From NCBI RefSeq assembly GCF_000016745.1, contig NC_009483.1, forward strand, positions 4,200,001 through 4,232,000: 32,000 nucleotides of DNA. Reading direction: 5' to 3'. Shown here one piece after another: positions 6,929-32,000 of this stretch (position 1 is the stretch's first letter; every line of letters begins with the position of its first letter). This DNA is from Geotalea uraniireducens Rf4. Its GTDB lineage: Bacteria; Desulfobacterota; Desulfuromonadia; Geobacterales; Geobacteraceae. The position numbers were made by a program, and so were the translations under genes. A model generated the notes under the pieces. It saw only the letters and a program-made list of their open reading frames with translations, was not told the origin of the DNA and ran no database searches.

Positions 6929-6970
6929 GCCGATGCCTCACTATTGCACGTCTCAACAATGGGAGCTTCC

Positions 6971-12800: not shown

Positions 12801-13331
12801 AGCAAGCTCGCTATCGTCCAACAATCTGCGGAAATCTTCCACCGCCCGGTTTTCTCCTGCCAGGGCAAGCAGCAGCAGCTCTTTGGCCCCCAGCTTCTTT
12901 CTGCCATGCTGCGGATCGTCGTCTGCCAGCCAGATCGTCAGCTCGGCTGCATCACCGAACAATTGGGCAGTACCGGGAAAAAGCGCTACAAAGTTTTCCA
13001 GCACAGTATAAAGCCTTTCGGAATCACAGGCAAATCCGGCGGAAGCCAACGCCTGATCGAGAACACCGGGGTGCTGTTCCTCGGTGTAAAGGTCTATGAC
13101 ATGGCGAAAGACAGTGGTGAGCAGGGCATACAGCTTCAATTGCCCAGCCTGCACCGGCCGATCTCCGGATCTGGTCAGCCTGTCTCCCAGGCCGCGAAAG
13201 AACATGATTTCCGGCAGCCGACGCGCCCGAACCTCTCTGGACACAGGCGCCATCTCCAGCGTCTTCCACATTTTTTTTCGTATCTGGATACCGAAGGGAA
13301 AATATTCCGCCCTGTCTTTTCGCACTCTCAT
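9864..13331 (-). CDS. Large alpha-amylase family (GH13) protein, 1155 aa
   Basis: GH13 conserved regions in order: DMVPNHTG, IIRFDAAMTLAKKH, LLLAEAFW, FVNFMSNPDE. The catalytic core occupies roughly the middle third and long N- and C-terminal regions are unassigned. The start codon is uncertain. Confidence 0.85.
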   Translation of the reverse strand: MRVRKDRAEYFPFGIQIRKKMWKTLEMAPVSREVRARRLPEIMFFRGLGDRLTRSGDRPVQAGQLKLYALLTTVFRHVIDLYTEEQHPGVLDQALASAGFACDSERLYTVLENFVALFPGTAQLFGDAAELTIWLADDDPQHGRKKLGAKELLLLALAGENRAVEDFRRLLDDSELAARSDYRLAVEGMERELARALPVKPFGLSLPDLLRAPLKSSPASLYDQLEYIRQNWHAILPPELLLEISSAFTVVHEESRIFAPRGEPGGIAVPKFGRGPGDHYPEYERFSPDADWMANVVMLAKMVYVWLDQLSRKYRRAIHRLDQVPDEELDTLSRWGFTGLWLIGLWERSPASQRIKQIAGNPDAISSAYSLYDYVIAHDLGGAEALASLKERCRQRGIRLASDMVPNHTGIYSKWTIEHPDWFVQLDYPPYPSYSFNGPDLSFSPEVSLHIEDGYWDKRDAAVVFKHYDHRDGRTRYIYHGNDGTSTPWNDTAQLNYLIPQVRETVIQTILHVARQFPIIRFDAAMTLAKKHYQRLWYPQPGLGSGVPSRAEHCMSREEFDAAFPEEFWREVVDRVAAEAPDTLLLAEAFWLMEGYFVRTLGMHRVYNSAFMNMLKMEENAKYRQTLKNVLEYDHRILPRFVNFMSNPDEKTAVEQFGKEGKYFGACVLLVTMPGLPMIGHGQIEGFHEKYGMEYRRSYWDEPVDEHMVRMHEEKIFPLMRKRWLFSGSENFVFYDFFAGGHVNEDVFAYSNRKDSERGIILYHNKFAETAGWIRTSTSIAVKDGAGETALVQKTLGSALDFNPDGRYYYGFRDYATGLEYIRSGRELYEKGLFVELEAFEYHAFLDFREIIDDDYGTWGRLCHDLGGRPVASIDEEIKQVRFKGVIDLARQLLADRPILLSGEFAVTGKAESPAWEPHAARFTAFLEALAVYVEGWEQVRAIVSAIARELAFLGGLATEEGDGEVAAARRLALQAMSGAGAPQIVAVAWLFFHRLGMLNEKTGWEVRSAEILHEFGLERAVEEVLCAAAGRPDAEPASLAPADSIILLRLMVRWQGFLDLPETGRLQMLFDDPLVQQFCLVHVSDGRRWCNKERLEFLLRSLFLAAVLRAYGEVAESREAPALLPRFYRQTTLLLEQAAEAGYRLDVYLGACRT

Positions 13332-15622: not shown

Positions 15623-16225
15623 ATGCACGGACCTGGACAAAAATATCTGCTTTCTGCGATTGCCGGTTTGGTAATCCTGCTCGGCAGCCATGTCGGCTTT
15701 TGCGCGGATGCAGCCGCCTTTAAGACCGCCACGGCCGAATATACCTTCCTCTCCGGCTACGGCATCACCCATCGCGGCTTCGGCGCGACCCGCACCCAGG
15801 TGCAGACCTTCGACAACATCGCCAGATTCGGCTGGTTCCTCTCGGATGAGGCCGGCAGCGGATGGTATCGGGGGAGGCATGAACTGCTGATGGAATTGCC
15901 GTTGCATCTGGCGGTCGACCCGAAGGTGCGGACCATGACGGGGGGATACCTGTTGGGGAGTTGGAAGTTCACGTCACCGGAGGACTTTGTGCCGTATGTC
16001 CTGGCAGGCGGCGGCGTGCTCTTCGTGGATCTCGGCCTGCCTACCATGGGGAGCCGCCTCGACTTCTCCTACCAAGGGGGAACCGGCATCCAGTATTTCA
16101 TTGCCAAAGACACGGCGCTCAGCTTTGAATACCGCTACCACCATATCTCCAACGCAGGCACCGCCTCGCCCAATGAGCCGCTCAACTCCAGCAAGATCCT
16201 GCTGGGCATCACCATCTTCCGTTAA
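15623..16225 (+). CDS. PagL-like acyloxyacyl hydrolase / lipid A deacylase-type outer-membrane beta-barrel protein
   Basis: Signal peptide, alternating beta-strand pattern, and C-terminal YRYHHISNAG...PNEPLNS resembling the PagL His/Ser active-site region. Confidence 0.65.
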   Translation: MHGPGQKYLLSAIAGLVILLGSHVGFCADAAAFKTATAEYTFLSGYGITHRGFGATRTQVQTFDNIARFGWFLSDEAGSGWYRGRHELLMELPLHLAVDPKVRTMTGGYLLGSWKFTSPEDFVPYVLAGGGVLFVDLGLPTMGSRLDFSYQGGTGIQYFIAKDTALSFEYRYHHISNAGTASPNEPLNSSKILLGITIFR

Positions 16226-18781: not shown

Positions 18782-19390
18782 CTACTCCAGCAGGAAATCC
18801 TTATCCTTCAGCCCCGCGTTGCGGCGCATGTTGGCAAACCTGATGACGGTACGGTCACGGTTGCGCTCCTCGATGACGAGCCGCTTGATCTTCCCTTCGC
18901 CGTCAAAGCTGATCTGCAGCTCCTTTATCCCCCCCTTGCTCTTGGGAAAGACCTGCATGGTCCAGTTGCCGCCCTGGCGCTCCGCCCGCACATCAGCCCC
19001 CTCGGGCAGGGCGGTAAGCGGCTTGGCCAGGTAAGAGAACCATTTTTCCAGGCTCTCCTCCGGCGGCAGCACGATCCGGTCGGTCACCCCCTGCTCCGGC
19101 AGCCGGATCGTCAGCACATTGTCCCGCAGGAGCAGGCGGCTCGCATAGGGAGGAAAGAGCTCCATAAAGAACATGCCCGGCTTTTTGAAGCGGACCACCC
19201 CCTTGGAGACCATCTTCCGTTTCATCAGGGCCAGCTGCTTTTCCTGGACAATTTCTGCGGTAAAGTCGGACATGCCGGCAAACCCGTGCCGCAGCGTCTC
19301 CAGCGCCTCCAGCGCCTTATCCTGGGCAGCGTGGGCAGAAGGAGCGAGACAGGTAAAAATTATCAGTACTACCAGCAACACCTTTTTCAT
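18782..19390 (-). CDS. LolA-like outer-membrane lipoprotein carrier family protein
   Basis: Signal peptide MKKVLLVVLIIFTCLAPSAHA. LolA-type pattern F.AEIVQEK......VSKGVVRFKKPGMFFMELFPPYASRLLLRDNVLTIRLP. Confidence 0.8.
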   Translation of the reverse strand: MKKVLLVVLIIFTCLAPSAHAAQDKALEALETLRHGFAGMSDFTAEIVQEKQLALMKRKMVSKGVVRFKKPGMFFMELFPPYASRLLLRDNVLTIRLPEQGVTDRIVLPPEESLEKWFSYLAKPLTALPEGADVRAERQGGNWTMQVFPKSKGGIKELQISFDGEGKIKRLVIEERNRDRTVIRFANMRRNAGLKDKDFLLE

Positions 19391-19464
19391 GGGCTTCCCG
19401 TAAAAGTCAGATAAGAAAACATTTCTACAACCGGCAATAAAGCAATCCTGTCCCTGTCATCCAG

Positions 19465-19487
19465 TGAAAAAGCCCTTGCAAAAGGGG
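19465..19487 (-). terminator. Weak intrinsic terminator candidate after the last island gene
   Basis: On the minus strand: CCCTT-ttgc-AAGGG followed by CTTTTTC. The stem is only 5 bp. Confidence 0.25.
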
Positions 19488-19566
19488 GGGAGACCATATA
19501 CGGACAACGCTGAGTTTGTCTTTCCTTTTGTTGAGACCATTCCGGCACCATCAACGAATTGATCAA

Positions 19567-20610
19567 CTATTCCTTGACGGTGTTGTCTTCTTCGCTACTA
19601 TCCGAAAACTCCGCCTCTAACTCCTCAATGGTTGGCAGGCTCCCTTTCAGGTTTTCCGGAATAGCGGCCACCAATTGATATTCGGATACACCCACCGGCT
19701 TTAAAATGTCTTTCAGTGCATACTCTGCAATTAATCCCTTTCGATCTTTGCAGAGAATCAGACCAATTGACGGATTATCGCTTTCATGCCGCATGGTGGC
19801 ATCCACAGCCGAGAGATAAAAATTGAGTTTCCCGGCATATTCCGGTTTAAAGGAGGTCGCCTTCAGTTCGATCACCACATAGCAGCGGAGTTTCAGGTGA
19901 TAGAACAGCAGGTCTATGAAAAAATCTTCTCCCTCCACTTCCAGGTGTACCTGCCGCCCAACAAAGGAGAAACCGGTCCCAAGCTCCAGTAAAAAACTGG
20001 TAATGTGCTTCACCAGTTCGCGCTCAACTTCACGTTCCTGGGCCTCATTGCCAAGTCCCAGAAAGTCGAACAGATATGGGTCTTTCAAAGTCTGATGCGC
20101 CAGATCGGATTGAGACGGAGTTAGAGTAGCGGCAAAGTTGCTGACAGCTTTTCCTTGTCGATGAAAGAGGCGAGACTCAATCTGCATTACCAGAATGTCG
20201 CGCGACCAGCCATGTTCGAATGCCTTGTGGATGTACCATTCCCGCTCTTCCGGTAATTTGACCTTCTGAATGAGGCGGACAATATGACCCCAGGGCAATT
20301 GTGAAACAAGCTGTTTCACTTTTTCCTCATCCGTGTACGCCTCGGCAAAAGCTCGCATAAACAGGAGGTTCCTGGGAGAAAACCCCTTCATATCCGGAAA
20401 CTCGGCACGTAAATCCCTTGCCAGTCGCTCTGTAACCTTGGCGCCCCATCCTTCTCGCTCCTGCCGTTCGAGGATGTCACGGCCGATCTGCCAGTAGAGC
20501 AGTACCAGTTCGTGGGTAACCGCCAGCGCCGCCCGCGTCCTGGCGGTGCGTATGCGCGCCTTCAGGTCGTGTAGAAAATGGTTGTAAGCGGTGGTGTCAA
20601 GGGTGGTCAT
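19567..20610 (-). CDS. DUF1016/YhcG-family PD-(D/E)xK nuclease domain protein
   Basis: ATG 20610 is preferred (GGAGA 5 nt upstream); the ORF track uses TTG 20622. N-terminal YhcG-like region (LLYWQIGRDILERQEREGWGAKV...LPWGH). C-terminal FIDLLFYHLKLRCYVVIELK nuclease motif. Confidence 0.85.
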   Translation of the reverse strand: MTTLDTTAYNHFLHDLKARIRTARTRAALAVTHELVLLYWQIGRDILERQEREGWGAKVTERLARDLRAEFPDMKGFSPRNLLFMRAFAEAYTDEEKVKQLVSQLPWGHIVRLIQKVKLPEEREWYIHKAFEHGWSRDILVMQIESRLFHRQGKAVSNFAATLTPSQSDLAHQTLKDPYLFDFLGLGNEAQEREVERELVKHITSFLLELGTGFSFVGRQVHLEVEGEDFFIDLLFYHLKLRCYVVIELKATSFKPEYAGKLNFYLSAVDATMRHESDNPSIGLILCKDRKGLIAEYALKDILKPVGVSEYQLVAAIPENLKGSLPTIEELEAEFSDSSEEDNTVKE

Positions 20611-20625
20611 GTTTTTCTCCAAAAC

Positions 20626-21618
20626 TCAATCATTCTTCCGATTGATCAGATTGACAATCACCTTAGCGATGGTCTCCTTCTCTTCCGGCCGACTTTCGGC
20701 AATGAGCAGGGTCAGCGCCACCAGAGCGTTGTCGGCCAGCCGCTTGCTGCCGTCGGGGCGGTAGAGGATGCCGTTCATGCCGAGGAAATAGATAAACAGG
20801 GCAGCGGCGATCCGTTTGTTGCCGTCACTGAAGGCGTGGTTTTTGACGACGAAGTAGAGGAGGTTGGCCCCCTTTTCCTCTACGCTGGGGTACAACTCCT
20901 CGCCGCCGAAGGTTTGGTAGATGGCCCCCAAGGCGCTCTTGAAACCCTGGTCCTTCTCGATACCGAACAGACCGTCGAAATCTCCCTTCATGGAGATAAC
21001 AATACCTATGGCTTCGTCATAGTCGATGACGTGCAGCGCCTGCCGGGTAGTCTCCTCGATGGACAGAGTGCCGTGGTCGTAGCGATCCAGGAGGGTCAGG
21101 GCATAAGCGTAATCGGTGATGACCCGCAGCACGTCCTTGCCGGTTTCATTGACCAGTTCCTGGTTGGCCAGGGTGCGGGCCAGCAGTTCCACGGTCCGGC
21201 GCATATCGGTCAGCTTTTCGGCCTGCTCACGGAAGCGCTGTTCGTTAACGGTGTAGCCTTTGACGATGTGGTCGCGCAGGACATGCGTAGCCCACTGGCG
21301 GAAGCGGGTGCCTTGCTGCGACTTGACCCGATAGCCGACGGAAATGATGACATCCAAATTGTAGTGGGCGGTATCATAGGTTTTTCCATCAGCGGCAGTT
21401 ATCCGGAATTTCCGGATAACTGAAGATTCATCCAACTCACCCTCGCGGAAAATATTCCTGATGTGTTCGTTGATTGTTCTAACATCCTTATTGAAAAGCT
21501 CGGCCAGTTGCTTTTGGGTCAGCCAGACGGTCTCTTTTTCGAGATGCACCGCAAGCGAGGTTGCCCCATCCGGGGTCTGGTACAGGACGACAGCATTGTC
21601 AGTAATGGTCATACTCAT
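20626..21618 (-). CDS. RhuM-family N-terminal domain fused to a Fic/Doc-type domain
   Basis: RhuM-like region: VVLYQTPDG...VWLTQKQLAELF...TINEHIRNIF...HYNLDVIISVGYRVKSQQGTRFRQWAT. The C-terminal core motif HAFSDGNKRIAAA has Lys at the Doc-type position (HxFxDGNKR). Confidence 0.85.
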   Translation of the reverse strand: MSMTITDNAVVLYQTPDGATSLAVHLEKETVWLTQKQLAELFNKDVRTINEHIRNIFREGELDESSVIRKFRITAADGKTYDTAHYNLDVIISVGYRVKSQQGTRFRQWATHVLRDHIVKGYTVNEQRFREQAEKLTDMRRTVELLARTLANQELVNETGKDVLRVITDYAYALTLLDRYDHGTLSIEETTRQALHVIDYDEAIGIVISMKGDFDGLFGIEKDQGFKSALGAIYQTFGGEELYPSVEEKGANLLYFVVKNHAFSDGNKRIAAALFIYFLGMNGILYRPDGSKRLADNALVALTLLIAESRPEEKETIAKVIVNLINRKND

Positions 21619-21683
21619 GCCTCAATAAAATCTAGTGAAAATTGCAATATGCATTTTTTGCAAATTGCTTTTTCGTTGGACTA

Positions 21684-23132
21684 CTACCCTTCTGCAAATG
21701 CATCACGCAAGTGATTTTTGCCGTCGGCGGCAGCTGTTTCCAAAAAGGAAATAGCTGCCTGCTCGTCCTGCTCAATGGCAATTTCCACGGCACGCTTGGC
21801 GGTTTCGAGTAAAGCGGTGGATTGCTTTTTGAGCGCAAGAGAGGAAATAATCTTCTCTCGGATTTTCAACTGGGTGTCTTTGGCTACAAAAGGGATAAGG
21901 ACTTGGGCAACATCTTTCGGGTATAGGTGCGGCTGTGCCGAACCGGTTCTCATTTTCTCGGTTTGAAGACGACCAATAAATGAGTTAATTACAAACGCGA
22001 CATACACGGGGTCTTCAATAACCCGAAGAATGATAATATCTTGGCATGCGACCGCCTTTTTCTCAGAAAGATAAGGCTGAGCTCTCCCGATATTTGCACC
22101 TGTCCCATAGATGAGAATATCGTTCTCTGCAACAAAAGATGTTTCCTCTGTTGAGAAGTGCTTTATATTGGTTTTGTCGAAGTTGTCGTAATTCAGTCCA
22201 GCTTCAAGGATATGTTTCTGGGTAATCATATCGACGGTTCCGGTCTCGTCATAAATTGCAGCCATCCCGCGTGAATTATAGGTTTGAATCTCCTCAACCC
22301 GCTTGAAATACTCACCATTGCTCTTGATGAGTTCTTCTATTTCGTCAAACATCGGCTGGTAATACTCCGCATCCATACGACCAGATGCGACGAAAGACTC
22401 CTTGAACGATTTGATGTTGGTGTTTTTGGTGGTGGGGGTGTAGGTGGCGAGGTTTAGTGCGTTGAGCAACAGGGTTTCGGCATTTTTATAGGAAGCTATT
22501 CCTTTGGATGAAACTTCGACCGAGTTCTGATGCAATTCAACAATTCTATTCTGAAATTCCTGCCCGAATAGTGGGATGAAAACGTCTCTTATATCTTCCA
22601 AGTGAAGATCGGGTTGACTTGCACCTTTTTGCACGCGCAGCAATTGTGTTTGACCACTTTCACTATTGATAAATGTTGCCAAAACTTCCGGCGCAATTAA
22701 TTCGGTTCTTGGTCGAAGTAATGCGACGCTCACAAAAATACTGAAGACTGGCAAACCTTCTGGAACTACAGCAGCCCATCGCGGGCCAACACCAACTTTA
22801 CGAAGCAATACATCCCCAGGCTGGGGATCACATCTTCGATAAAGATTATCGTGTTCTTCAGAACTGATGAATCGGTGCCCAGCTTCAAGGCTTAGCGAAT
22901 TTTCCAATACATTCAGCGCGGAAAGAAATGGGACGCCATTTTCTGTATAACTCGGCGTGAAGTGTGTTCCGTCAGAAATCTTATTCGTAAGAGTAGAAAG
23001 AAGCACAGGACTTTTACTCTTTAATAAATTTTCCAAAGAAAGATATTTTTTCTGGTAATACTCAGCTTCCATGCGAACAGGCTTGTGAAGCGATGAAAAT
23101 AATATCTCGCTAATCTCAAGCCCTTCCAACAA
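21684..23132 (-). CDS. hsdS: Restriction-modification specificity subunit with two target-recognition domains
   Basis: Internal duplication RMEAEYYQKKY / RMDAEYYQPMF and KGASQPDLHLEDIRDVFIPLF / TGSAQPHLYPKDVAQVLIPFV. Starts about 30 nt after the methyltransferase stop. The start is uncertain: it is a TTG and the frame stays open upstream without ATG, GTG or TTG. Confidence 0.85.
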   Translation of the reverse strand: MLEGLEISEILFSSLHKPVRMEAEYYQKKYLSLENLLKSKSPVLLSTLTNKISDGTHFTPSYTENGVPFLSALNVLENSLSLEAGHRFISSEEHDNLYRRCDPQPGDVLLRKVGVGPRWAAVVPEGLPVFSIFVSVALLRPRTELIAPEVLATFINSESGQTQLLRVQKGASQPDLHLEDIRDVFIPLFGQEFQNRIVELHQNSVEVSSKGIASYKNAETLLLNALNLATYTPTTKNTNIKSFKESFVASGRMDAEYYQPMFDEIEELIKSNGEYFKRVEEIQTYNSRGMAAIYDETGTVDMITQKHILEAGLNYDNFDKTNIKHFSTEETSFVAENDILIYGTGANIGRAQPYLSEKKAVACQDIIILRVIEDPVYVAFVINSFIGRLQTEKMRTGSAQPHLYPKDVAQVLIPFVAKDTQLKIREKIISSLALKKQSTALLETAKRAVEIAIEQDEQAAISFLETAAADGKNHLRDAFAEG

Positions 23133-23161
23133 CGCCCGATAACGGGCTTCATCGAAAGGGC

Positions 23162-25378
23162 CTAAAGAAAAAAACTTAGGCGCTCCTTTTTGGCAAATTC
23201 GATAAAAGCCTCGGCAATGCCGTCTTGGGTCAAGCCGTCGTGATTGAACAGGTCGTGCTTGACGATCAGGTGTTCATGGGCATCCAGCACAAATTCGTTG
23301 AGGTCTTGCGGCGTGGCTTCGTAGCGATTAATCACTTCGGCGGCGATGTTCTTGGCAGGCGTCTTTTCTGCGCTGGCCACTGCCGGCAAGTCCTTGCGTT
23401 TCACAAATATCTTATCGCCGCTATTGTCCTTGCTCGGCTCCTTCATGGTGGCAAAAAAGATGTGGTAATCGTCCACCCTGGGGCAGAGCTTGTCGTCCCA
23501 CTTTTGCACGAATATCACGCTGGTTTTGGTGCCGGTGTGCGGCTTGAACACGTTGCCGTGCAACCCCACCACGGCCAGGATGCGGCAATGGTCGGCCAGG
23601 TATTCGCGGATGTATTTGTCGCTGGAGTTGTTAAAGCGGCCCTGCGGCAACACAATCGCCATCCGCCCGCCGGGCTTGATGAAGCTCAGATTGCGCTCGA
23701 TAAACAGGATGTCGCGACCGACATTGTTTTGGTCTTTGATTTTTACCTTGCGGAACGAGCCGTCGGCCATTTTGTAGATGGTATCAAAGCTGGCGCGCAA
23801 GCACTCCGGGAAAGTCGGCACGCGCTGGGTCGCATCCTCGATGTTCTTGTCGTTCTCATCGACCTTGCTAATCTTGTCCAGGCTCACGGTTCGTGCCAAT
23901 TCATATTTGGCCAGAATACGGGTTTCCTTGATGTCACCCGCAAACGGTGGATTGGCCATGAGGATGTCAAAGGAGAAGTCCCTGTCTTGCTCTTTGGCCG
24001 CTCTCTGTTTGCGCAGCTTTTTCCAGCCTTCGCTGTAAATGTCAGTCCAATTTTGGTCTTTGGTTTTTTCGTCCCAACGTTCGTAATCCAAGGTGTTGAG
24101 GTGCAGCACGTTGGTTTGGCCGTCACCGGCGATCAGGTTCAGGGTCCGGCCTACGCGCACGGCCTTTTCGTCAAAGTCGATGGCAAATACTTTATCCTGC
24201 ACGTAGTCTGTCTCGCGCGGTGTGCGTTGCTCTGTAGTGAAGTGATCGCTTATGGGTAAGCCAAGATCACGCCGGATCTGATGCCAGACATGAAAAATGG
24301 TGTGCACCGGAAAGCCGCAACTACCAGCGGCGGTGTCGATTATCGATTCGTGCTCCTGCGGATTGAGCATCTTGACGCACATATCAATTACGTAGCGCGG
24401 AGTGAAATACTGCCCTTTCTCCCCCTTGCTGCTTTTATTGATGAGATACTCGAAAGCCTCATCCACCACGTCCAGATTGGAGTTAAACAGCTTCACCCCT
24501 TCCAGTGACGATACGCACACAGCCAGGTGGCTGGGGGTGAGATCGATTTTTGCGCCATCGGGAAATACCCCTTCCCACTTGCCGCGAGCTTTGTCGAACA
24601 ACTCCTGGATTTTGGCTTTGAGTTCGGTTTCGGTGTCGCCATAGTTTCTAAAAATGAGATGGCGCTTTTTGTCGCGCCCACTTTCCATTTCGTCATACAG
24701 CTTGGTAAAGATTAGTTTGAACAGCTCCTCAAAGACATCCACGCCGGCGTTGGCGAGAACTTCATCCTCCATCTCCAGAATCAGGTCTTTGAGCGATTTC
24801 TTTTGATTGACCAGGACGTCGTGTTTTACAAGGTCGTCAAGCGTCCAGCGCGCTGTCAGGATGTCGGAAAGCTTTTCATGGGCCGAGGGGATGGCAGGGA
24901 TAGGCTCAAAGTAGTTCGGGTCTTTACGGTGATAGAACGAAATGCTGTCACCATTACTCCAGACCCCCATAGGTGCGCCACTGAAATTGCAATAACTTTT
25001 GAGCTGTTCTTTGCCATCTTTGAGTTTGGGCTTCTTTAACTCCACCAAGATGTAAGGGGTAGTTGTTTTGTCCTTATCAAAAACACAGATATCAACCCGC
25101 TTTTTTTCGCGACCACGAGTTACGTCGTATTCAAGAGAAAGGCGATTGATTGGATAGTCCAGATCATCTTTGAGCACCATCACATACAACTGGCGCACAG
25201 CTTCCTCGGGCGTGAGCTTGATCGGTTTGCCGCGCACCAGGCAAGAGACGTAAGGGGCGGGATTCTTCTCCGTCTCCTTCATCGTGATGCTAGCCTCTAA
25301 TGCTTGAATTTGAGCTGGTTTAAATTGCGTGAGCTTGTAGGCGCTGTCTTTGAGTAGTTCGGCCAGTGTGATCGTCAT
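23162..25378 (-). CDS. N6-adenine DNA methyltransferase with N-terminal PD-(D/E)xK (HsdR-N-type) nuclease-like domain, a putative R-M fusion subunit
   Basis: AGGAAA SD. N-terminal RVDICVFD...YILVELKKPK. Methyltransferase motif I IIDTAAGSCGF and motif IV MANPPFAG. 738 aa, with long spacers around motif IV. Confidence 0.8.
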   Translation of the reverse strand: MTITLAELLKDSAYKLTQFKPAQIQALEASITMKETEKNPAPYVSCLVRGKPIKLTPEEAVRQLYVMVLKDDLDYPINRLSLEYDVTRGREKKRVDICVFDKDKTTTPYILVELKKPKLKDGKEQLKSYCNFSGAPMGVWSNGDSISFYHRKDPNYFEPIPAIPSAHEKLSDILTARWTLDDLVKHDVLVNQKKSLKDLILEMEDEVLANAGVDVFEELFKLIFTKLYDEMESGRDKKRHLIFRNYGDTETELKAKIQELFDKARGKWEGVFPDGAKIDLTPSHLAVCVSSLEGVKLFNSNLDVVDEAFEYLINKSSKGEKGQYFTPRYVIDMCVKMLNPQEHESIIDTAAGSCGFPVHTIFHVWHQIRRDLGLPISDHFTTEQRTPRETDYVQDKVFAIDFDEKAVRVGRTLNLIAGDGQTNVLHLNTLDYERWDEKTKDQNWTDIYSEGWKKLRKQRAAKEQDRDFSFDILMANPPFAGDIKETRILAKYELARTVSLDKISKVDENDKNIEDATQRVPTFPECLRASFDTIYKMADGSFRKVKIKDQNNVGRDILFIERNLSFIKPGGRMAIVLPQGRFNNSSDKYIREYLADHCRILAVVGLHGNVFKPHTGTKTSVIFVQKWDDKLCPRVDDYHIFFATMKEPSKDNSGDKIFVKRKDLPAVASAEKTPAKNIAAEVINRYEATPQDLNEFVLDAHEHLIVKHDLFNHDGLTQDGIAEAFIEFAKKERLSFFL

Positions 25379-25452
25379 GAAGTTTTCCTATGCTATGTTC
25401 GGTTAAGTTCTTGTTGTTGATTACAGTTTTAAGTGCCGCCCATGGTTGGATG

Positions 25453-26334
25453 CTACAAATCATATTCAAAAAAATCCGAATCAACCTTTTTAATTTCGTA
25501 AATTGACTCTACAGAGACACCGACACCATGATCGATCATATATTCTGCGAGTTGGGAGCCATCGATAAGAATGATACGAGAAGAATACTCTTTTACTGAG
25601 GCAAGAGCGTCTTTGGTGAAATTAGAAGTGGTAATGAATATACCTTTTGAAGCTTTTTTTTTAGAAAGGGCGCCTGCAAATTGGTCGATGTCTGGGCTAC
25701 CAACGGGTTTATCAGTCCATCGTTTTGCTTGAATATAGATGTTGTCTAGGCCAAGTTTATCTTCTCTGATAACACCATCTATTCCACCATCGCCAGTTTT
25801 GCCAACCGCTTGACCAGCATCTTTCAATGATCCGCCATAACCCATTTTGACTAGTAAAAGAATTACGAGCCTTTCAAAAAACTGCGGTGAACATTTTTTT
25901 ACTTTATCAAGAATCTCAGAAGCTAATGCATGTCGAATTTGCTCATAATGCGATGCAATTGATTCAATTGGCGTGTCATGTGGCGTTGAGTCATTTTCTT
26001 TTTTACTCTTCTTCTTGCCTTGAAATTCCAGAAATTCCGCAAATTGTGACAAAAGTTTATTGTCAATTCGACTTGGCTTTTTCTTGAGAACGTCAACACC
26101 TCTTTGAGTAATTTTGAAAAAGCCGCGTCGAGTAGCTTCCAGTAGGCCGGCTTTTTGTAAATATGTTCTCGCCCATGAAGCTCTGGACGAAAATTTGAAT
26201 GTCCCCCCGCTTGGCAACAATTCTTTTCTTTCCTCTTCTGTTAGCTTGAAATCATCAGCCAACTGGTCAATCGCTGCGGACAGTTGCAGTTCGTTGCCAT
26301 TCGCTTTGGCTGCGATTTGCATCAATGGGAGCAT
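25453..26334 (-). CDS. mrr: Mrr-family (type IV, modification-dependent) restriction endonuclease
   Basis: N-terminal Mrr_N-type winged helix (ELLPSGGTFKFSSRASWARTYLQKAGLLE...RGFFKITQRG). C-terminal catalytic region GDGGIDGVI...IYIQAKRW. Confidence 0.85.
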   Translation of the reverse strand: MLPLMQIAAKANGNELQLSAAIDQLADDFKLTEEERKELLPSGGTFKFSSRASWARTYLQKAGLLEATRRGFFKITQRGVDVLKKKPSRIDNKLLSQFAEFLEFQGKKKSKKENDSTPHDTPIESIASHYEQIRHALASEILDKVKKCSPQFFERLVILLLVKMGYGGSLKDAGQAVGKTGDGGIDGVIREDKLGLDNIYIQAKRWTDKPVGSPDIDQFAGALSKKKASKGIFITTSNFTKDALASVKEYSSRIILIDGSQLAEYMIDHGVGVSVESIYEIKKVDSDFFEYDL

Positions 26335-26445
26335 AATGTAGATTCATAATCAGGAATAGGCATCTCAATATCTCCGTTTCTTGTTCATCCAACGGTTTCG
26401 CCAGTCACCTGACGTGAAGCGATGGTTCGGCTCTCGCAGCACTCG

Positions 26446-26838
26446 TTACGCTGCCAGCTCTTGCAGCACCTCGGGATGTCGTGAAGCTACTTTCAGTAAG
26501 GTAGCTGCCGCTCCGGATGGCATTTTTCGCCCCTGCTCCCATTCCTGAAGCGTACGCACCGAAACTCCAAGAAGCTTGGCAAATGCAGCTTGAGACAATC
26601 CCGTTGCCGCTCTTGCTGTAGCGACCAGAGCTTTTTCAGCCGGGATGATTTCGTCTTTCTCTATTGTTCCGTCGCGTCTGGTAATAATGCGACGAACTGA
26701 CCCGTCCGGTTGTGTAATAAATTCGGTTTTCCTAGCCCAATCGCCGCGTTTCATTTCGCGTAAGGACTGCAAAAGCTCAGCGTTAAGATCCCGCTTTTTT
26801 TCCCATGCAGCCAGTTCTTTTTCAGACAATTTAACCAT
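26446..26838 (-). CDS. higA: HigA2-like antitoxin with C-terminal XRE-type HTH
   Basis: ATG 26838 is preferred (AAGGAGG 9 nt upstream). It overlaps the toxin stop as ATGGTTAA. HTH: TGLSQAAFAKLLGVSVRTLQEWEQGRKMP. Confidence 0.8.
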   Translation of the reverse strand: MVKLSEKELAAWEKKRDLNAELLQSLREMKRGDWARKTEFITQPDGSVRRIITRRDGTIEKDEIIPAEKALVATARAATGLSQAAFAKLLGVSVRTLQEWEQGRKMPSGAAATLLKVASRHPEVLQELAA

Positions 26839-27145
26839 TTTCAAATACCTCCTTGAGGCGTCTCAGCAATTTGGGGTCTATGTTTTCTTGTACGTTTTTC
26901 GCATACATTGTCACCAGCACTATCTGTCCGGGATTGAGACGTAGGAAATAAATCACCCGCACGCCTCCCCGCTTGCCACGTCCCTCGATTGCCCATCGCA
27001 GTTTCCGGCAGCCGCCGGAGTGAGGGATAACGTCGCCCTTATCAGGGTGTTCAGTCAGATAAAGCTGAAGTGCCGCGAATTCGTCATCGTTCAGATACTT
27101 GTCACGAACAGTGGCAAATGGATGCAATTCGATGAATGTGAGCAT
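26831..27145 (-). CDS. higB: HigB2/RelE-superfamily toxin
   Basis: 104 aa. GGCRKLRWAIEGRGKRGGVRVIYF...IVLVTMYAKN signature. The toxin-first gene order is typical of HigBA. Confidence 0.8.
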   Translation of the reverse strand: MLTFIELHPFATVRDKYLNDDEFAALQLYLTEHPDKGDVIPHSGGCRKLRWAIEGRGKRGGVRVIYFLRLNPGQIVLVTMYAKNVQENIDPKLLRRLKEVFENG

Positions 27146-27156
27146 GATTTAAATAT

Positions 27157-27169
27157 ACGTCTTAGACGT
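27157..27169. promoter_or_regulatory. Palindrome ACGTCT-T-AGACGT just upstream of the toxin start, a possible TA operator
   Basis: Perfect 6+1+6 palindrome 12 nt upstream of ATG 27145, embedded in an AT-rich tract (tttaaatat) that could serve as a -10 region. Confidence 0.3.
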
Positions 27170-27316
27170 AGACTGGTCAAGGGGAAATATTTTCATTTTC
27201 TTCTTTCGCCTTTATTCTGCCGAACATATTGGTCAGCTGATCCGCTACTAAATATACAATCACGCATAAAGCCGCATTGAATCACGAAATACGGATTTCA
27301 ATTAACGCAACCAGCA

Positions 27317-27342
27317 TAAAAAACAACACCGGTTTTTAACCG
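27317..27342 (-). terminator. Intrinsic terminator candidate after the dehydratase gene
   Basis: On the minus strand: CGGTT-AAA-AACCG followed by GTGTTGTTTTTTAT, 10 nt after the stop. The stem is short. Confidence 0.35.
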
Positions 27343-27352: not shown

Positions 27353-27766
27353 TCACATCTTCCCCACCGCCAGGGTGAGCGTGGCAGAAGCAATGACCTT
27401 TCCTTCCGACCGCACCTCCCCCTCCACCAGGTGGAGCGTGCCGAAGGATTTGACGATGCGGGTCGCGACCAGGAGCCTTGCACCGGCAGGCACTGCGGCA
27501 GGCAGTTCCCCCCGCTCGATGGCGGCAAGGACCCCACCTGCCCCTTCCTGCTGGCCTGCGGCGATGCCGCCCAGCTGGGCCATGGATTCCAGGAGGAGCA
27601 CCGGCGGAAAACAACCGCAACCGGCAGTGACCACAACCTCACCTGTGGCGCACACCCCCGGTTCAAGGGTGATGATCCTGTCGACAAAGAGAAACGGGGA
27701 GCGATGGGGAAGATAGTGGGAGGGGTCAGGGTTGAACAGGGTCGCCTCCCCTGAAATCGATGGCAT
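27353..27766 (-). CDS. FabZ/FabA-like hot-dog fold (3-hydroxyacyl-ACP) dehydratase homolog
   Basis: LPHRSPFLFVDRI and LLLESMAQLGG match FabZ signatures. The usual GHFP reads GCFP, so the catalytic His appears replaced. This ATG overlaps the upstream gene by 41 nt, so the start is uncertain. Confidence 0.7.
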   Translation of the reverse strand: MPSISGEATLFNPDPSHYLPHRSPFLFVDRIITLEPGVCATGEVVVTAGCGCFPPVLLLESMAQLGGIAAGQQEGAGGVLAAIERGELPAAVPAGARLLVATRIVKSFGTLHLVEGEVRSEGKVIASATLTLAVGKM

Positions 27767-28775
27767 AATACGGTCCTTCAGGTGAGGCAGCCAGATGCAG
27801 GCCGTTGCAGCCGGGCTGAAGCGCGAGAACGAGGGCTGTCATGGCAAGCCCCCCCATGGCAATCGAGCGGCCGATGAGCGGGGCGGTCTCCAGCCGGGTA
27901 ACGGCCGGCAGGCGGTCCAGAAGCGGCTTTTCGGCAGCCGCGGTGCCGGACAGACCAACGAGGCTTGCGTCCGTCACCCCGGCAAGGAGCCGATCGGCCC
28001 CTTCCCCTTCATGACCGGGGATAAGCCTGCCGATGGTCCGCACACACCCCACGCGTCCTCTGGCCGGGGCATTGCGCCGTCGGGCATGCGACCCTCTTTC
28101 CAGCACCAGAATGCCCGCCCCTTCGCCGAAACCGGCCCCATGGCGCCTTAGCTGGCCTGTGGCCGCGAATCCTTTCAGCATGGCAGGGGTGAGTTCATCC
28201 ACGCCTCCGGTCAGGATAATGTCCGCCCGATCCTCCTGCAGGAAGCGGCAGGCCATCATGAAAGCCGACTCGGCAGAGCAGAAACGCTGGACAAATGTGA
28301 CGTTGGGCCCCTTCAGGCCGTGCTCGATGGAGGCGTTGCTGGCCGATGCATTGGGAACCGTGTTGGGAAAGAGCATCGGCGTCAGCCCTTCGGCGCCGGC
28401 GGTAAAGTAACCGCGGAGGAACTCTTCCGAGTTGGCGATGCCGCCGAAACCGCAACCGAGGACAATGCCGATCCGGTCGGCATCGAGAGTGGCCGGTTCA
28501 ATGCCGGCGTCCTTGAGGGCCATGCCCGTGGCGACAACCGCAAACTGGCTGCAACGGTCGAATTTGCGGGCCTTGAGCGGCGGTATGAAGTCGACTGCCC
28601 TGAAACCATCCGCCTTCCCCCACAGGTGCCCCGATTCGCCGAGGATATCCGCCGGGACAGGTTTAAGCAGGCTTTCGCCGCGGCTCAAGGCTTCGCGTAA
28701 GCTGTCGAGCCCGACGCCGGCCGCCGAGATGGCGGCCATGCCGCTGAGTACTATGTCGTTGCCAATATCGCTCAT
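27726..28775 (-). CDS. Beta-ketoacyl synthase-like protein lacking the His-His dyad (chain-length-factor-like partner)
   Basis: Thiolase fold: GPNVTFVQRFCSAESAF...ILTGGVDE...GFGEGAGILVLE. No HxTAP or NxHGT motifs in the shortened C-terminal half (349 aa). ATGA start/stop overlap with the upstream KS. Confidence 0.75.
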   Translation of the reverse strand: MSDIGNDIVLSGMAAISAAGVGLDSLREALSRGESLLKPVPADILGESGHLWGKADGFRAVDFIPPLKARKFDRCSQFAVVATGMALKDAGIEPATLDADRIGIVLGCGFGGIANSEEFLRGYFTAGAEGLTPMLFPNTVPNASASNASIEHGLKGPNVTFVQRFCSAESAFMMACRFLQEDRADIILTGGVDELTPAMLKGFAATGQLRRHGAGFGEGAGILVLERGSHARRRNAPARGRVGCVRTIGRLIPGHEGEGADRLLAGVTDASLVGLSGTAAAEKPLLDRLPAVTRLETAPLIGRSIAMGGLAMTALVLALQPGCNGLHLAASPEGPYYAIDFRGGDPVQP

Positions 28776-30022
28776 ATTCCCAACACCAGACTGGTGATGT
28801 TCCCCCCGAAAGCAAAGGAGTTGGAAAGCGCCACCTTCGCGGCGCTCTGCTTCGCACCCGGATGGCGGTAATCCAGGTCGCAGTCGGGGTCAGCCCCTCT
28901 GAAATTGAGGGTCTGCGGGATAACGCCCTCGTTCAGGGCAATGACCGTGGCCAGGGCCTCGATGGCCCCAGCCGCGCCAAGGCAGTGGCCGGTGAGGGCC
29001 TTGGTCGAAACCAGCGGCACCCCCATCGCTCGATTGCCGAATACCAGCTTCATCGCCTTTGTCTCCACCACATCGTTGAGCGGAGTCCCCGTGCCATGGG
29101 CATTGACCCAGCCGACCTCGTCAACGGAGACCCCGGCCTGGTTCATGGCTGCGGTCATTACCCGGGCCGCATCGGCGCCGCTCGGTTCCGGGGCGGTCAT
29201 GTGATAGGCCTCGCCGGCAACCGCATAGCCGAGAACATGGCCATAGACGCGTGCACCGCGACGTATGGCACTCTCTTCGTCTTCCAGCACCAGGAATGCC
29301 GCCCCTTCCCCCAGCGATATCCCCTGCCGTCCCAGGCTGAAGGGGGCGCAAGGTTCGGCATCGACCACCCGCAGGGAGTTGAATCCGGCAAAGGTGAGAA
29401 TGGAGAGACAGTCCGAACCGCCGCAGACAGCCGCCTTCAACCTGCCGGTGGCGATCAGGTCTGCCCCCCAGCCGATGGCGGTGGCCGACGAGGAGCAGGC
29501 TGTGGTGATGCTCCCCAGGTAGCCGCCAAGGTTGTAGGCGACGGCAATGGCCATCGAAGTCCGGTCAGGCAAAAGTCCGCGCAGGAGGGAAGGTTTTCCC
29601 TTCTTGCCGGCCAGGGTTTCTTTCAGCCACTCCTCGGCCTGGAGCATGCCGGCGGCGCCGGCCCCCATGGAAATGCCGATGTCGTAAGGGGAATAACAGC
29701 CGCAGACGCCGCTATTGTCCAAGGCCTCGCCGGCGGCGATGACGCCGAACTGGTCGGCGCGGGAGAGCTTTTTTGCCTGCTTTGCCGTGAAATGATCGAG
29801 CGGATCGAAGCCATGGACCTGGGCGCCGATCCCGGCGGCAAAAGGGCCGACATCGAACAGGTCGATCGGCCCAATGGCGCTGCGACCCTTCAGGAGCGCG
29901 TCGGTGAATGACGGCACATCTTTTCCGGCAGCGGAGAAGATGCCGAGACCGGTTATGGCTATTCTTTTACGTTCCATCATACTCTTCGTGGCGATCGCCG
30001 CCGTTTTCCTCACATGCAACAT
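28772..30022 (-). CDS. fabF: Beta-ketoacyl-ACP synthase II-like condensing enzyme
   Basis: Cys-His-His triad motifs ITTACSSSATAIG, EAYHMTAPEP and NAHGTGTPLND, plus GHCLGAAGAIE. The true start may be the ATG at 29977-29980 (MERKRIAITG). Confidence 0.9.
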   Translation of the reverse strand: MLHVRKTAAIATKSMMERKRIAITGLGIFSAAGKDVPSFTDALLKGRSAIGPIDLFDVGPFAAGIGAQVHGFDPLDHFTAKQAKKLSRADQFGVIAAGEALDNSGVCGCYSPYDIGISMGAGAAGMLQAEEWLKETLAGKKGKPSLLRGLLPDRTSMAIAVAYNLGGYLGSITTACSSSATAIGWGADLIATGRLKAAVCGGSDCLSILTFAGFNSLRVVDAEPCAPFSLGRQGISLGEGAAFLVLEDEESAIRRGARVYGHVLGYAVAGEAYHMTAPEPSGADAARVMTAAMNQAGVSVDEVGWVNAHGTGTPLNDVVETKAMKLVFGNRAMGVPLVSTKALTGHCLGAAGAIEALATVIALNEGVIPQTLNFRGADPDCDLDYRHPGAKQSAAKVALSNSFAFGGNITSLVLGI

Positions 30023-30082
30023 TTATCCATTAGTGTCCGATTAGAAGATTGCACTCTCCAAGCCATAAAAACCAGCACATTG

Positions 30083-30192
30083 CACCCTCCCCTAACCCCT
30101 CCCATCAAGGGAGGGGAGCTTTTAGGTCCCCTCGCCCCTTGTGGACCCAAACAGCGGGCCTAAAGGAGAGGGCTAGGGTGAGGGGAGAAGTG
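30083..30192. repeat. REP-like C/G-tract intergenic element with internal hairpin
   Basis: Sequence caccctcccctaacccctccc-atcaa-gggagggg ... ggagagggctagggtgaggggag. Hairpin CCCCTCCC/GGGAGGGG at 30096-30116. The outer arms are imperfectly complementary. Confidence 0.6.
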
Positions 30193-30312
30193 CGGATGCA
30201 AAAACTAACCAGACATTGCTACCCAGCATTTTAACCGCAAAGACACCAGGAGACAAAGCATTTCTTCAGGAAAAGGGGCGGTGTCCCGGTCATCGCTATT
30301 GGAAGTATGCCG

Positions 30313-31053
30313 TCATACTACGCCGCCGTCAACGACCAGGCACTGGCCGGTGATATACGACGCCCGCTCCGAGGCGAGGAACGCCACCGCCTCGGCAACC
30401 TCCTCGACCCTGCCGATCCGCCCCAGCGACGCGCTCTTGACGATTTTATCCACCATTTCGGGCTTCATGGCAGCGGTCATCTCCGTCTCGATCAGTCCCG
30501 GCGCCACGGCATTGACCCTGATCCCCATCGGCCCGACTTCCCTGGCCAGCGAACGGGTGAAACTCATCGCCGCCCCCTTGCTTGCTGCGTAGTTGGTCTG
30601 TCCGGCAGTGCCGGTCAGGGCGGAGATGGAGGAGAGGTTGACGATAATCCCGCGCCGGTTGCCGATCATCTTCCGCACCCCCCACTTGCAGCAGTGGAAC
30701 AGCGGGTAGAGGTTCCCCCTGAGCACCGCATCCCAGTCCTCGTCGGACATCATGGGGAGGTAGCCGTCGCGGATTATGCCGGCGTTGTTGACGAGGATAT
30801 CGATGGCGCCGCCGTCTCCTGCCGCTGCCTCCATAAGGGCCATGGCCCCCTCGGCGGTGGCAACGTCCGCCTTCACCGCACTGATCGTGCCTGCCAGACC
30901 GAAAGCCTCTTCCATCAAGGCCGCGGCCGCAGCATCGTTAGTCAGATAAGCAGCGGTGACCTGCGCCCCGAGCCGGGCGAAGTGCAGCGAGATGGCCCGG
31001 CCGATCCCTCTGGTGCCGCCGGTGACGACGACGATCTTGTCCTTGAACTCCAT
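30313..31053 (-). CDS. fabG: 3-oxoacyl-ACP reductase (SDR family)
   Basis: GAGGAG SD. Motifs TGGTRGIGRAI and NNAG, and the catalytic S...YAASKGA. Confidence 0.9.
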   Translation of the reverse strand: MEFKDKIVVVTGGTRGIGRAISLHFARLGAQVTAAYLTNDAAAAALMEEAFGLAGTISAVKADVATAEGAMALMEAAAGDGGAIDILVNNAGIIRDGYLPMMSDEDWDAVLRGNLYPLFHCCKWGVRKMIGNRRGIIVNLSSISALTGTAGQTNYAASKGAAMSFTRSLAREVGPMGIRVNAVAPGLIETEMTAAMKPEMVDKIVKSASLGRIGRVEEVAEAVAFLASERASYITGQCLVVDGGVV

Positions 31054-31080
31054 GGTTACTCCTCAATACATTTAGATCCA

Positions 31081-31255
31081 CCACGAAATCACGGAGAAAG
31101 GCAGAACCTATTTACCGCAAAGACGCGAAGAGAACCTAAAACCTTTTTGGATTTAAACCAAAAGATTCCAGGATCTTAAACCCGGTCTTTGTTTTTCTTT
31201 GCGTCTTTGCGGTTCGATGGTTCTCAGGTACTGCCTTTCCTCTGTGTCTCTGTGG
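31081..31255. repeat. Nested long hairpin (CCACGAAATCACGGAGAAAGGCAG / CTGCCTTTCCTCTGTGTCTCTGTGG; CCGCAAAGACGCGAAGA / TCTTTGCGTCTTTGCGG)
   Basis: Outer arms at 31081-31104 and 31231-31255; inner arms at 31115-31136 and 31195-31212. A lone related half-site, ccgcaaagacaccaggagac, lies at about 30235-30256. Confidence 0.75.
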
Positions 31256-31265
31256 CAAATGGTAG

Positions 31266-32000
31266 TTACATCGGCTTTACCCGGCTCCGCCCCAGCCGCT
31301 TCATCAGTTTCCACAACGGACCGCGCACCGGAAAGTGGCGCAACGCTTCGAGCATGGCGTCGCTCATGTTGATCTCCAGCCCCGGCGCCACCCAGTTTTT
31401 CCGGGCCAGCGCCCGTTCGGTCACCATCCGGCAAAGCGTCTCCCGGATGGGGGGCGAGATGTAGAAAACCGGCTCAAGAAGCGATGTCCGGCTGGTGATG
31501 ACGCCATCCGCCAGCGCCGCATCATGGAGGGGGGTGCCTGGAAATATCCTGATGCCGGTCATGGCAATGACCGCGGTCGGCTCCAGCTCGTCCATCAGGG
31601 AAAAGCTCTCGTCTATGGTCGCCTCGCTCTCGCCCGGGCCGCCGAAGAGGATGTAGTGGGCAAAATCCGCCCCCTGCTCCCTGCAGAGGCGGGAGGCGCT
31701 CCGCACATCTTCCACGCCGAACGACTTGCCGAGGTTACGCAGCATCTGCGCCGAACCGGATTCGCTGCCGAACTCCACGGCATCGCAGCCGGCTGCAATC
31801 ATGGCATTCAGCAGTGACGGGGTTACAAAGGCGGGATTGATGAACGCAGTCCAATTGATCGGCAGCTGCTCGGCAATGATGGCGCGGCAGAGCTCTTCGG
31901 CAAATTCCGGCGGATAGTTGAAGATATCATCGACAAAATAGATGTAACTGACGCCGAATCCATCGACAAGCGACCTGATCTCGGCGACGATCTCGCCGAT
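31266..32000 (-). CDS. Radical SAM enzyme, C-terminal part (5' end off the window)
   Basis: The frame is open to nt 32000 (IGEIVAEIRSLVDGFGVSYIYFVDDIFNYPPEF...), beyond the internal Met used in the ORF track. FVDD.F, GCDAVEFGSESGS and GGPGES are typical of the radical SAM TIM-barrel distal half. The CxxxCxxC motif lies outside the window. Confidence 0.75.
   Translation of the reverse strand: MGEIVAEIRSLVDGFGVSYIYFVDDIFNYPPEFAEELCRAIIAEQLPINWTAFINPAFVTPSLLNAMIAAGCDAVEFGSESGSAQMLRNLGKSFGVEDVRSASRLCREQGADFAHYILFGGPGESEATIDESFSLMDELEPTAVIAMTGIRIFPGTPLHDAALADGVITSRTSLLEPVFYISPPIRETLCRMVTERALARKNWVAPGLEINMSDAMLEALRHFPVRGPLWKLMKRLGRSRVKPM

Follow-up and report, generated by a model that had tools for sequence, protein, structure and literature searches.

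A conserved fab and radical SAM gene cluster in Geotalea uraniireducens Rf4 with a cysteine-retaining, histidine-less ketosynthase partner and a predicted role in lipid synthesis

We analysed a 32,000-nt stretch of the genome of Geotalea uraniireducens Rf4 (assembly GCF_000016745.1, contig NC_009483.1, positions 4,200,001 to 4,232,000 of the forward strand; hereafter the window), at the end of which, between positions 27353 and 32000, five genes resembling those of type II fatty-acid synthesis are found. In transcription order they encode the C-terminal part of a B12-binding radical SAM protein (Rc), a FabG-like 3-ketoacyl-acyl carrier protein reductase (KR), a FabF-like ketosynthase (KS), a ketosynthase-like partner (KS') and a FabZ-like hot-dog protein (DH). 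Profile searches recovered all five open reading frames on the minus strand, with the positions, order and identities that an initial annotation, made from the letters of the window, had proposed (Table 1). Judged from gene content, this cassette makes up the middle part of a cluster of about 20 genes overall, which occupies the window from about position 8321 to past position 32000.

The fragment of Rc in the window scored 175.6 bits on the NCBIfam model TIGR04072, covering model positions 213-440 of 443; this model, named rSAM_ladder_B12, is described as "lipid biosynthesis B12-binding/radical SAM protein". KR carries the nucleotide-binding motif TGGTRGIG together with the Ser and YxxxK motifs and is 42% identical to E. 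coli FabG and 36% to ApeQ. It reached 266.5 bits on TIGR01830, for which the FabG equivalog cutoff is 297.75, and passed only the broad subfamily model NF009466 (227.5 vs 222 bits). All catalytic motifs of KS are intact, with the Cys in TACSSS, the His in NAHGTG and the Lys/His in TKALTGH, plus NSFAFGG, and its score of 366.2 bits on TIGR03150 is under the FabF equivalog cutoff of 493.75. KS orthologues are 401-413 amino acids long, and the first ATG of KS probably precedes its true start by about 15 codons. An ATGA overlap joins the KS stop to the KS' start, and the start of DH overlaps the end of KS' by 41 nt.

Both spacers in the upstream part of the cassette, between Rc and KR and between KR and KS, are about 190-200 nt longer than those of a close relative. 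The former is filled by a palindromic element of about 144 nt (31096-31239, arms 76-93% complementary), which may be a small mobile or repetitive element, and the latter holds a related 23-nt motif at 30231-30253 (…GTCTTTGCGGTTAA). The palindromic element has no Rfam match; an Rfam search of the entire window, run at gathering thresholds, gave zero matches, and a promoter and terminator scan gave background-level results.

The initial annotation had described KS as complete and KS', coupled to it, as lacking the His-His dyad. Both descriptions were confirmed, with the addition that KS' keeps the nucleophilic Cys. When KS' was aligned to FabF, its Cys166, within an invariant QRFCSAE motif, fell on the nucleophile position, His303 was replaced by an invariant Ser and His340 by a nearly invariant Arg, and the Lys was lost. 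The C-terminal half of KS' is about 60 residues shorter than that of FabF, and the AlphaFold2 model of the protein (pLDDT 82, pTM 0.87) has a complete yet compact thiolase fold, which superimposed with a TM score of 0.75 on FabFs and of 0.71, computed both ways, on the 347-residue chain-length factor AntE. Such a Cys-retaining, His-less partner, with Ser and Arg in place of both His residues, is newly reported here.

Heterodimers of a KS and a chain-length factor, such as those of actinorhodin, AntDE, Iga11/12 and amxFabF2/amxFabFmut, share adjacent and translationally coupled KS and KS-like genes and a partner without the catalytic His-His, and all of these were found for KS and KS'. The predicted fold and size of KS' match those of the compact AntE; it differs from these systems in that the partner gene comes after KS and in its invariant Cys. 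Chain-length factors of type II polyketide synthases have a Gln at the position of the active-site Cys. In anammox bacteria, FabF2 and an inactive FabF make up a functional heterodimer resembling a KS/chain-length-factor pair, the inactive FabF having Val or Thr at that position (bioRxiv 10.64898/2026.05.19.726425).

A search with KS' against 1.84 billion representative sequences returned 51 proteins at E<=1e-30. The full-length relatives are essentially one 50%-identity cluster and one 49%-identical sequence, the other matches being restricted to the N-terminal domain or belonging to fused two-KS proteins of about 800 amino acids. QxFC(S/T)A is also retained in two deltaproteobacterial relatives at greater distance, which have likewise lost the His-His. 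Because matches and full-length relatives are so few, the Cys-retaining KS' is, on this sequence sampling, a small lineage-restricted branch within the large family of KS partners. Many proteins of about 750-860 amino acids elsewhere (for example in Paenibacillus shirakamiensis) are natural KS-KS' fusions with two KS-like halves, the second of which matches KS', which is consistent with KS and KS' working as a pair.

DH was also found to depart from its canonical relatives. Its assignment as a FabZ-like hot-dog protein stood at the level of the family match (56.6 bits, under the cutoff of 113). The catalytic His of FabZ is gone. DH retains the LPHRxPFL motif and the catalytic Glu60 (in LLESMAQ, present in 81 of 81 orthologues), but a 13-residue deletion has removed the "PFFQGHFPGKP" loop that contains the catalytic His of FabZ, and the sole His conserved among the 81 orthologues is the one in LPHR. 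The same pattern, with the Glu there and the His loop gone, is seen in E. coli ApeP, to which DH is only 25% identical. ApeI has a "WFNGHF" His loop; its matching Glu was not apparent by eye in a stretch that MAFFT left unaligned. A tblastn search of 85 loci at E<=0.01 detected no ApeI-like His donor in the cluster, and DH did not reach PF22817 in a profile scan, so that an ApeI/ApeP pair was not recovered. FabZ-type active sites span the dimer interface, one subunit supplying the His and the other the Glu, and we therefore infer from these residue patterns that DH contributes half of a dehydratase site, like ApeP. A DH with the Glu but without the His loop is also newly reported.

According to the initial annotation, no acyl carrier protein (ACP), acyltransferase or thioesterase gene was present, and the sequence past position 32000 was recommended as the place to look. 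The absence holds within the window but not for the cluster, since these genes lie just past position 32000, on a contig of the same strain or in relatives. Same-strain Logan contigs match the window with 100% identity; one of them, which covers 30156-32000, extends 2,060 nt past 32000. It contains the full Rc gene, a 4HBT thioesterase gene that overlaps the Rc start and, upstream of the thioesterase, a gene for a FabD-like acyltransferase. The full Rc protein (460 amino acids) carries CPFTCIYC and scored 395.7 bits on TIGR04072, above the cutoff of 360. In the FabD-like protein, Ser92, His201, Gln11 and Gln250 are conserved, while the alignment at Arg117 is ambiguous by one residue.

Three sources gave the full array: a contig from groundwater, with 95-97% identity to the window, another close contig, and the complete Geotalea daltonii FRC-32 genome (CP001390.1, at about 2.128-2.143 Mb). 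All genes of the array are co-directional, in the following order: a polysaccharide deacetylase (NodB domain and DUF3473), a family 2 glycosyltransferase (GT2), a radical SAM/SPASM protein, a B12-binding radical SAM protein, an acyltransferase of the Lip_A_acyltrans family, the ACP, a B12-binding radical SAM protein with DUF4070, the FabD-like protein, the 4HBT thioesterase, the TIGR04072 protein, KR, KS, KS', DH, the LolA-like protein, (the LolB-like and GH13-like proteins) and the MMPL protein. Divergently transcribed YceG and response-regulator genes mark its upstream border. Extending the locus therefore yielded the FabD-like and thioesterase genes from the strain itself and the ACP, the LpxL-type acyltransferase and further radical SAM genes from its relatives. 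The proposal that a radical SAM gene heads the cassette had to be given up: at least nine co-directional genes precede Rc in close relatives, and Rc appeared to be the head because the window edge cuts the array.

The ACP, taken from a relative, shares 45% identity with ApeE (E=6e-21) and 27% with AcpP and passed NF006617 (72.8 vs a cutoff of 70). Identity to ApeK is about 30% for the thioesterase; the acyltransferase matches the C-terminal domain of ApeJ at about 27%. For the acyltransferase the best model was the PIM acyltransferase with 108 bits, LpxL models giving at most 64, all under their cutoffs; for GT2 it was polyprenyl-P-GalNAc synthase (89 bits). The gene listings of the full clusters contain no enoyl reductase, phytoene-desaturase-like protein, FabH or FabI, and since no enoyl reductase is encoded, gene content does not fix the saturation state of the chain.

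These data bear on whether the cassette could simply serve housekeeping type II fatty-acid synthesis, as FabF, FabG and FabZ are the best general matches of KS, KR and DH. We consider this hardly credible. All three proteins score under the equivalog cutoffs, KS' is catalytically incomplete, DH has lost its catalytic His, the ACP is not AcpP-like, FabH and FabI are missing, and the cassette sits among export, radical SAM and glycosyl genes. Primary fatty-acid synthesis was rejected on these scores, residues and gene context, in agreement with the initial view that the cassette is a dedicated one.

To describe conservation, one genome per species was scanned; KS' relatives were present in 189 genomes, and the best 80 loci were kept for gene mapping. 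All 80 belong to Geobacteraceae or Desulfuromonadales, and KS, KS' and DH occur together in 77 of them. With strong profile matches and conservation in 77 of 80 related species loci, the cassette is far beyond chance. The proposed link to LolA-like and MMPL genes was well founded, as a LolA-like gene follows DH in 78 related species (one locus each) with a median spacing of 95 nt and a maximum of 467 nt. Of the 63 loci with enough flank, 43 have a TIGR04072 gene on the upstream side of KR. Counterparts of Rd, the B12-binding radical SAM protein encoded at 14005, and of the adjacent PagL-family barrel recur beside MMPL in related loci. Rd and the PagL-like and LolB-like genes also belong to the cluster, and the GH13-like gene probably does. 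Extra B12-binding radical SAM paralogues, about 40% identical to the cluster protein Rb, were observed downstream of MMPL (5 loci) and between Rb and the FabD-like gene (10 loci), so that the number of radical SAM genes varies between lineages.

Table 1 Features of the lipid cluster and the interrupting island in the window
Feature	Position	Strand	Match or remark
B12-binding radical SAM protein Rc, C-terminal 244 aa	31266..32000, runs past window end	-	TIGR04072; Pfam Radical_SAM E=6e-11
KR, FabG-like 3-ketoacyl-ACP reductase, 246 aa	30313..31053	-	adh_short_C2 E=4e-61
KS, FabF-like ketosynthase, catalytically complete by motifs	28772..30022	-	both ketoacyl-synt domains
KS', KS-like partner (chain-length-factor-like), 349 aa	27726..28775	-	N-terminal KS domain only detected by Pfam, PF00109
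DH, FabZ-like hot-dog protein, 137 aa	27353..27766	-	FabZ-like NF000582, 56.6 bits (cutoff 113)
Low-GC insertion, outside the pathway	19425..27325		RelE/Xre pair, Mrr, HsdR_N-N6 methyltransferase, 482-aa hypothetical protein, RhuM/Fic, YhcG/DUF1016 nuclease
LolA-like periplasmic lipid carrier (predicted)	18782..19390	-	directly after DH in 78 related species
MMPL/RND protein (HAE3, HpnN-like), predicted inner-membrane lipid exporter	16233..18764	-	
PagL-family outer-membrane beta-barrel	15623..16225	+, divergent	adjoins MMPL in a subset of loci
Fourth B12-binding radical SAM protein Rd, HpnJ-like	14005..15423	+	188.8 bits (HpnJ cutoff 577.6)
Small secreted protein, 83 aa	13387..13638	-	only in Geotalea-type arrangement; cluster membership uncertain
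1155-aa protein with distant GH13 (alpha-amylase) domain	9864..13331	-	LolA-MMPL interval in about 10 related loci
Zinc-ribbon protein, 192 aa	9032..9610	-	no homologue in related loci; membership doubtful
LolB-like lipoprotein, lipobox FFAGC	8321..9016	-	LolA-MMPL interval in most related loci

Within the window the cluster is interrupted by a strain-specific island of about 8 kb, made up of genes of the defence or mobile type. Against a window GC content of about 60%, a stretch of 42-54% GC extends over roughly 19.4-27.3 kb, and DH and the LolA-like gene are separated by 7,962 nt. Compared with the 95-97%-identical relative, two extra inserts flank a shared RhuM/Fic gene here: one at 21669-27325 with the RelE/Xre pair, Mrr, the HsdR_N-methyltransferase fusion and the hypothetical protein, and one at 19425-20625 with the YhcG nuclease. 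Between DH and LolA, neither G. daltonii nor Geotalea sp. SG265 carries any insert. With the whole island here, RhuM/Fic alone in the relative and nothing in other Geotalea, this intergenic spot inside the operon has been hit repeatedly.

The GH13-like protein is probably a cluster member, as its gene lies between LolA and MMPL in about 10 species. It may act on a sugar head group or a glucan; a PDB sequence search returned only a marginal neopullulanase match, and NCBIfam was uninformative. Beside the LolB-like gene, a radical SAM/SPASM "Geobacter metalloenzyme maturase" is encoded at 6944-8311 (TIGR04311, 685 bits). The same maturase is found about 5 kb upstream of the cassette in species that have KR-KS-KS'-DH-LolA alone, and its presence near both cluster types suggests a shared chromosomal position at which the rest of the cluster was lost or gained. 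The block at 50-6712 is Hdr/Mvh-like (CCG-domain protein, HdrA-like Fe-S flavoprotein, MvhD/FlpD, ferredoxin-like proteins and FAD/NAD-binding oxidoreductase) and appears unrelated to the lipid cluster.

Given the initial suggestion of a logic like that of aryl-polyene (APE) clusters, the ape cluster of E. coli CFT073 (apeA-R) was compared directly with the 85 loci by tblastn (E<=0.01). APE lipids are made with an acyltransferase, a thioesterase, an MMPL protein and a Lol-like set, the chain being placed on a GalNAc-phosphoglycerolipid and sent to the outer membrane (PMC8253772; bioRxiv 10.1101/2020.12.19.423268). The present cluster shares with them a dedicated ACP, a KS with a non-catalytic partner, KR, a hot-dog DH, a 4HBT thioesterase, an acyltransferase that may act on a hexosamine-phospholipid anchor, and an MMPL plus Lol-like route; the ACP, seen in a relative, is ApeE-type, and an MMPL exporter gene lies in the window. 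The logic of the APE type was thus borne out, but its characteristic components were not, because no homologues of ApeC, ApeI, ApeH, ApeB, ApeN or ApeG were found. Across the 85 loci, ApeA, B, C, D, G, H, I, L and N gave no match at this threshold, and the Pfam lists of the full clusters contain no ammonia-lyase, leaving the cluster devoid of aryl-starter machinery. ApeC belongs to PF13723 and KS' to PF00109. By profile cutoffs and pairwise scores, on which the placement of KS rests, KS, KR and DH are closer to E. coli FabF, FabG and FabZ than to ApeO/R, ApeQ and ApeP. Five radical SAM genes are added here, and none occur in APE clusters, as the initial annotation had pointed out. That the locus is a canonical aryl-polyene pigment cluster, which the ApeE-like ACP, the ApeK-like thioesterase, the acyltransferase resembling the ApeJ C-terminus and the LolA-like and MMPL genes could suggest, is thus very improbable given the missing PF13723 chain-length factor, ApeI, H, B, N, G, D and L and aryl-activating enzyme and the foreign radical SAM genes; at the level of gene content it was refuted.

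A second comparison concerns ladderane-type or other anaerobic polyunsaturated pathways, in which KS, KR and DH, working without an enoyl reductase, would build a polyene that B12-binding radical SAM enzymes cyclise or rearrange into carbocycles. The PDB entries 9s5h and 7qv0/8ay* are presumably anammox proteins, an assignment made from their descriptions. KS, KS' and DH matched these FabF heterodimer and FabZ structures, tentatively assigned as they are, no better than ordinary FabF and FabZ. The resemblance noted at the outset to fab plus radical SAM clusters discussed for ladderanes is real, as the full Rc passes TIGR04072 and Rattray et al. (2009), describing such clusters in Kuenenia, named Geobacter clusters of this type and grouped them with those of anammox bacteria and Desulfotalea (PMC2649909). 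The same study reported that the G. sulfurreducens KS paralogue NP_951518 has a degenerate active site, including His333 to Arg, and that the anammox cluster also has a polysaccharide-deacetylase-like gene, a glycosyltransferase and a degenerate KS; the Geobacter version was not dissected there (PMC2649909). Calls of "ladderane" clusters by antiSMASH have been made in Desulfobacterota and other non-anammox phyla, with function unassigned (PMC9902471). Anammox Cluster I is described as confined to ladderane producers (PMC10139942).

Shared with the ladderane-like clusters are FabF paralogues, one of them degenerate, B12-binding radical SAM proteins, an ACP, a FabZ-like protein, a glycosyltransferase and a deacetylase-like protein. 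Different here are the Cys kept in KS', the prominent LolA/LolB-like, MMPL and GH13-like genes and the missing phytoene-desaturase-like gene. Identity with anammox Cluster I (kustE3603-3608), which combines a phytoene-dehydrogenase-like gene with amxACP, amxFabZ, FabF2, an inactive FabF and a B12-binding radical SAM gene, was rejected, since no member of the amine-oxidase/phytoene-desaturase family occurs in the full clusters and KS' retains its Cys. A ladderane-type or anaerobic polyunsaturated product has in its favour the TIGR04072 protein encoded beside KR, the missing enoyl reductase and the published grouping; nonetheless we regard it as unlikely, because a desaturase-like gene is lacking, a DH without its catalytic His argues against efficient polyene formation, and the proteins are no closer to the anammox structures.

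The acyltransferase family raises another explanation, namely that the product is a special secondary acyl chain destined for lipid A, by analogy with the very-long-chain system acpXL-fabZXL-fabF2XL-fabF1XL-lpxXL of rhizobia. There, the chain is built by two FabF paralogues and a FabZ together with a dedicated ACP before an LpxL-type enzyme passes it to lipid A. A dedicated ACP, two KS paralogues, KR, a FabZ-like DH and a Lip_A_acyltrans-family enzyme are all present here, and the adjacent barrel belongs to the PagL family of lipid A deacylases. Lipid A, however, is exported by MsbA/Lpt and not by the MMPL, LolA-like and LolB-like set conserved here, the ACP is ApeE-like, and the acyltransferase prefers the PIM model over those of LpxL, all below cutoff. 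Moreover, this explanation gives no role to GT2, the deacetylase and five radical SAM genes. The rhizobial cluster is without radical SAM, MMPL, LolA-like, LolB-like, GT2 and deacetylase genes, and its two FabFs both have complete catalytic sites. A lipid A chain is therefore a rather unlikely product.

The combination of a GT2, a deacetylase, a B12-binding radical SAM protein and an RND/MMPL exporter is also known from the hopanoid side-chain genes HpnI, HpnK, HpnJ and HpnN. The cluster shares this combination, and HpnJ and HpnN are the best NCBIfam matches of Rd and MMPL. It differs in that the scores are far under the cutoffs (181.7 vs 751.85 for MMPL on HpnN; Rd in Table 1) and in that the lipid here would be derived from ACP and KS and would not be a triterpenoid.

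Taking together the observed gene content, gene order, catalytic-residue patterns, family memberships and conservation, we favour as the probable interpretation that the five genes build the chain at the core of a lipid cluster, about 20 genes long and conserved in Geobacteraceae and Desulfuromonadales, whose product would be an acyl chain tailored by radical SAM enzymes, placed on a glycolipid anchor and exported to the outer membrane. Heterodimer formation, the radical SAM chemistry, the nature of the anchor and the destination are our proposals. The FabD-like transacylase would load malonate onto the dedicated ApeE-type ACP, and the complete KS with its coupled, His-less KS' would elongate the acyl chain as a heterodimer in the manner of a KS and its chain-length factor. 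KR would reduce every beta-keto group, and the Glu-only DH would either give half of a dehydratase site as in ApeP or act as a non-canonical dehydratase. Up to four B12-binding radical SAM proteins and one SPASM radical SAM protein may then act on unactivated carbons, through C-methylation, the formation of C-C bonds or cyclisation. Since the thioesterase gene runs into the start of the TIGR04072 gene, which directly precedes KR, the TIGR04072 protein is suggested to act on ACP-bound intermediates. The 4HBT thioesterase may proofread or release the chain, which the PIM/LpxL-type acyltransferase would attach to an anchor that contains a hexosamine and is produced by GT2 and the NodB-type deacetylase, and MMPL, the LolA-like carrier and the LolB-like lipoprotein would carry the lipid to the outer membrane. 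The chain itself could be saturated or a polyene, methylated or cyclised, and cannot be read from the sequence; we agree with the initial annotation that the product is not predictable in this way.

Several points weigh against this interpretation. The invariant Cys of KS' is atypical of chain-length factors, and by this residue KS' may have a role beyond shaping the tunnel. Dehydration may be absent, or reliant on housekeeping FabZ, given a DH without the catalytic His. It was in relatives, and not in the strain of the window, that the ACP, acyltransferase, GT2 and deacetylase were seen, and the glycolipid anchor is proposed from weak family matches. In 20 of the 63 assessable species KR-KS-KS'-DH-LolA stand alone within 10 kb, with unrelated flanks, so that the link of the cassette to the half with radical SAM, ACP and acyltransferase genes is not universal; in these species it may work with genes elsewhere or independently. 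A literature search gave no functional data on the Geobacter cluster and no product or phenotype.

The cluster is a conserved, real, orphan lipid cluster of a kind flagged in the literature since 2009 and also in curated models, and its existence is not surprising. A bolder and only tentative proposal is that it makes an undescribed outer-membrane glycolipid of Geobacteraceae, elongated with a Cys-retaining, His-less KS partner and a Glu-only hot-dog protein, whose chain is rewritten by four B12-binding radical SAM enzymes and one SPASM enzyme so as to be multiply C-methylated, cross-linked or carbocyclic. Clusters of fab and radical SAM genes are labelled "ladderane" by mining tools in many anaerobic phyla, none with an assigned product. 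The anammox relatives are not open to genetics, and an anammox radical SAM enzyme resisted heterologous expression (PMC10139942). The present cluster occurs almost throughout a culturable family, for whose extracellular electron transfer the cell envelope is central, and a complete, uninterrupted copy is present in Geotalea daltonii FRC-32. As Geobacter and Geotalea can be grown in culture and some of them can be manipulated genetically, they would, if the proposal is true, provide the first workable system for the function of the TIGR04072 "ladderane-type" radical SAM proteins. Two concrete enzymological oddities stand out, a KS partner that keeps its Cys and a hot-dog protein with a putative half-site, and gene knock-out combined with lipidomics could reveal a new class of envelope lipid and the reaction of TIGR04072.

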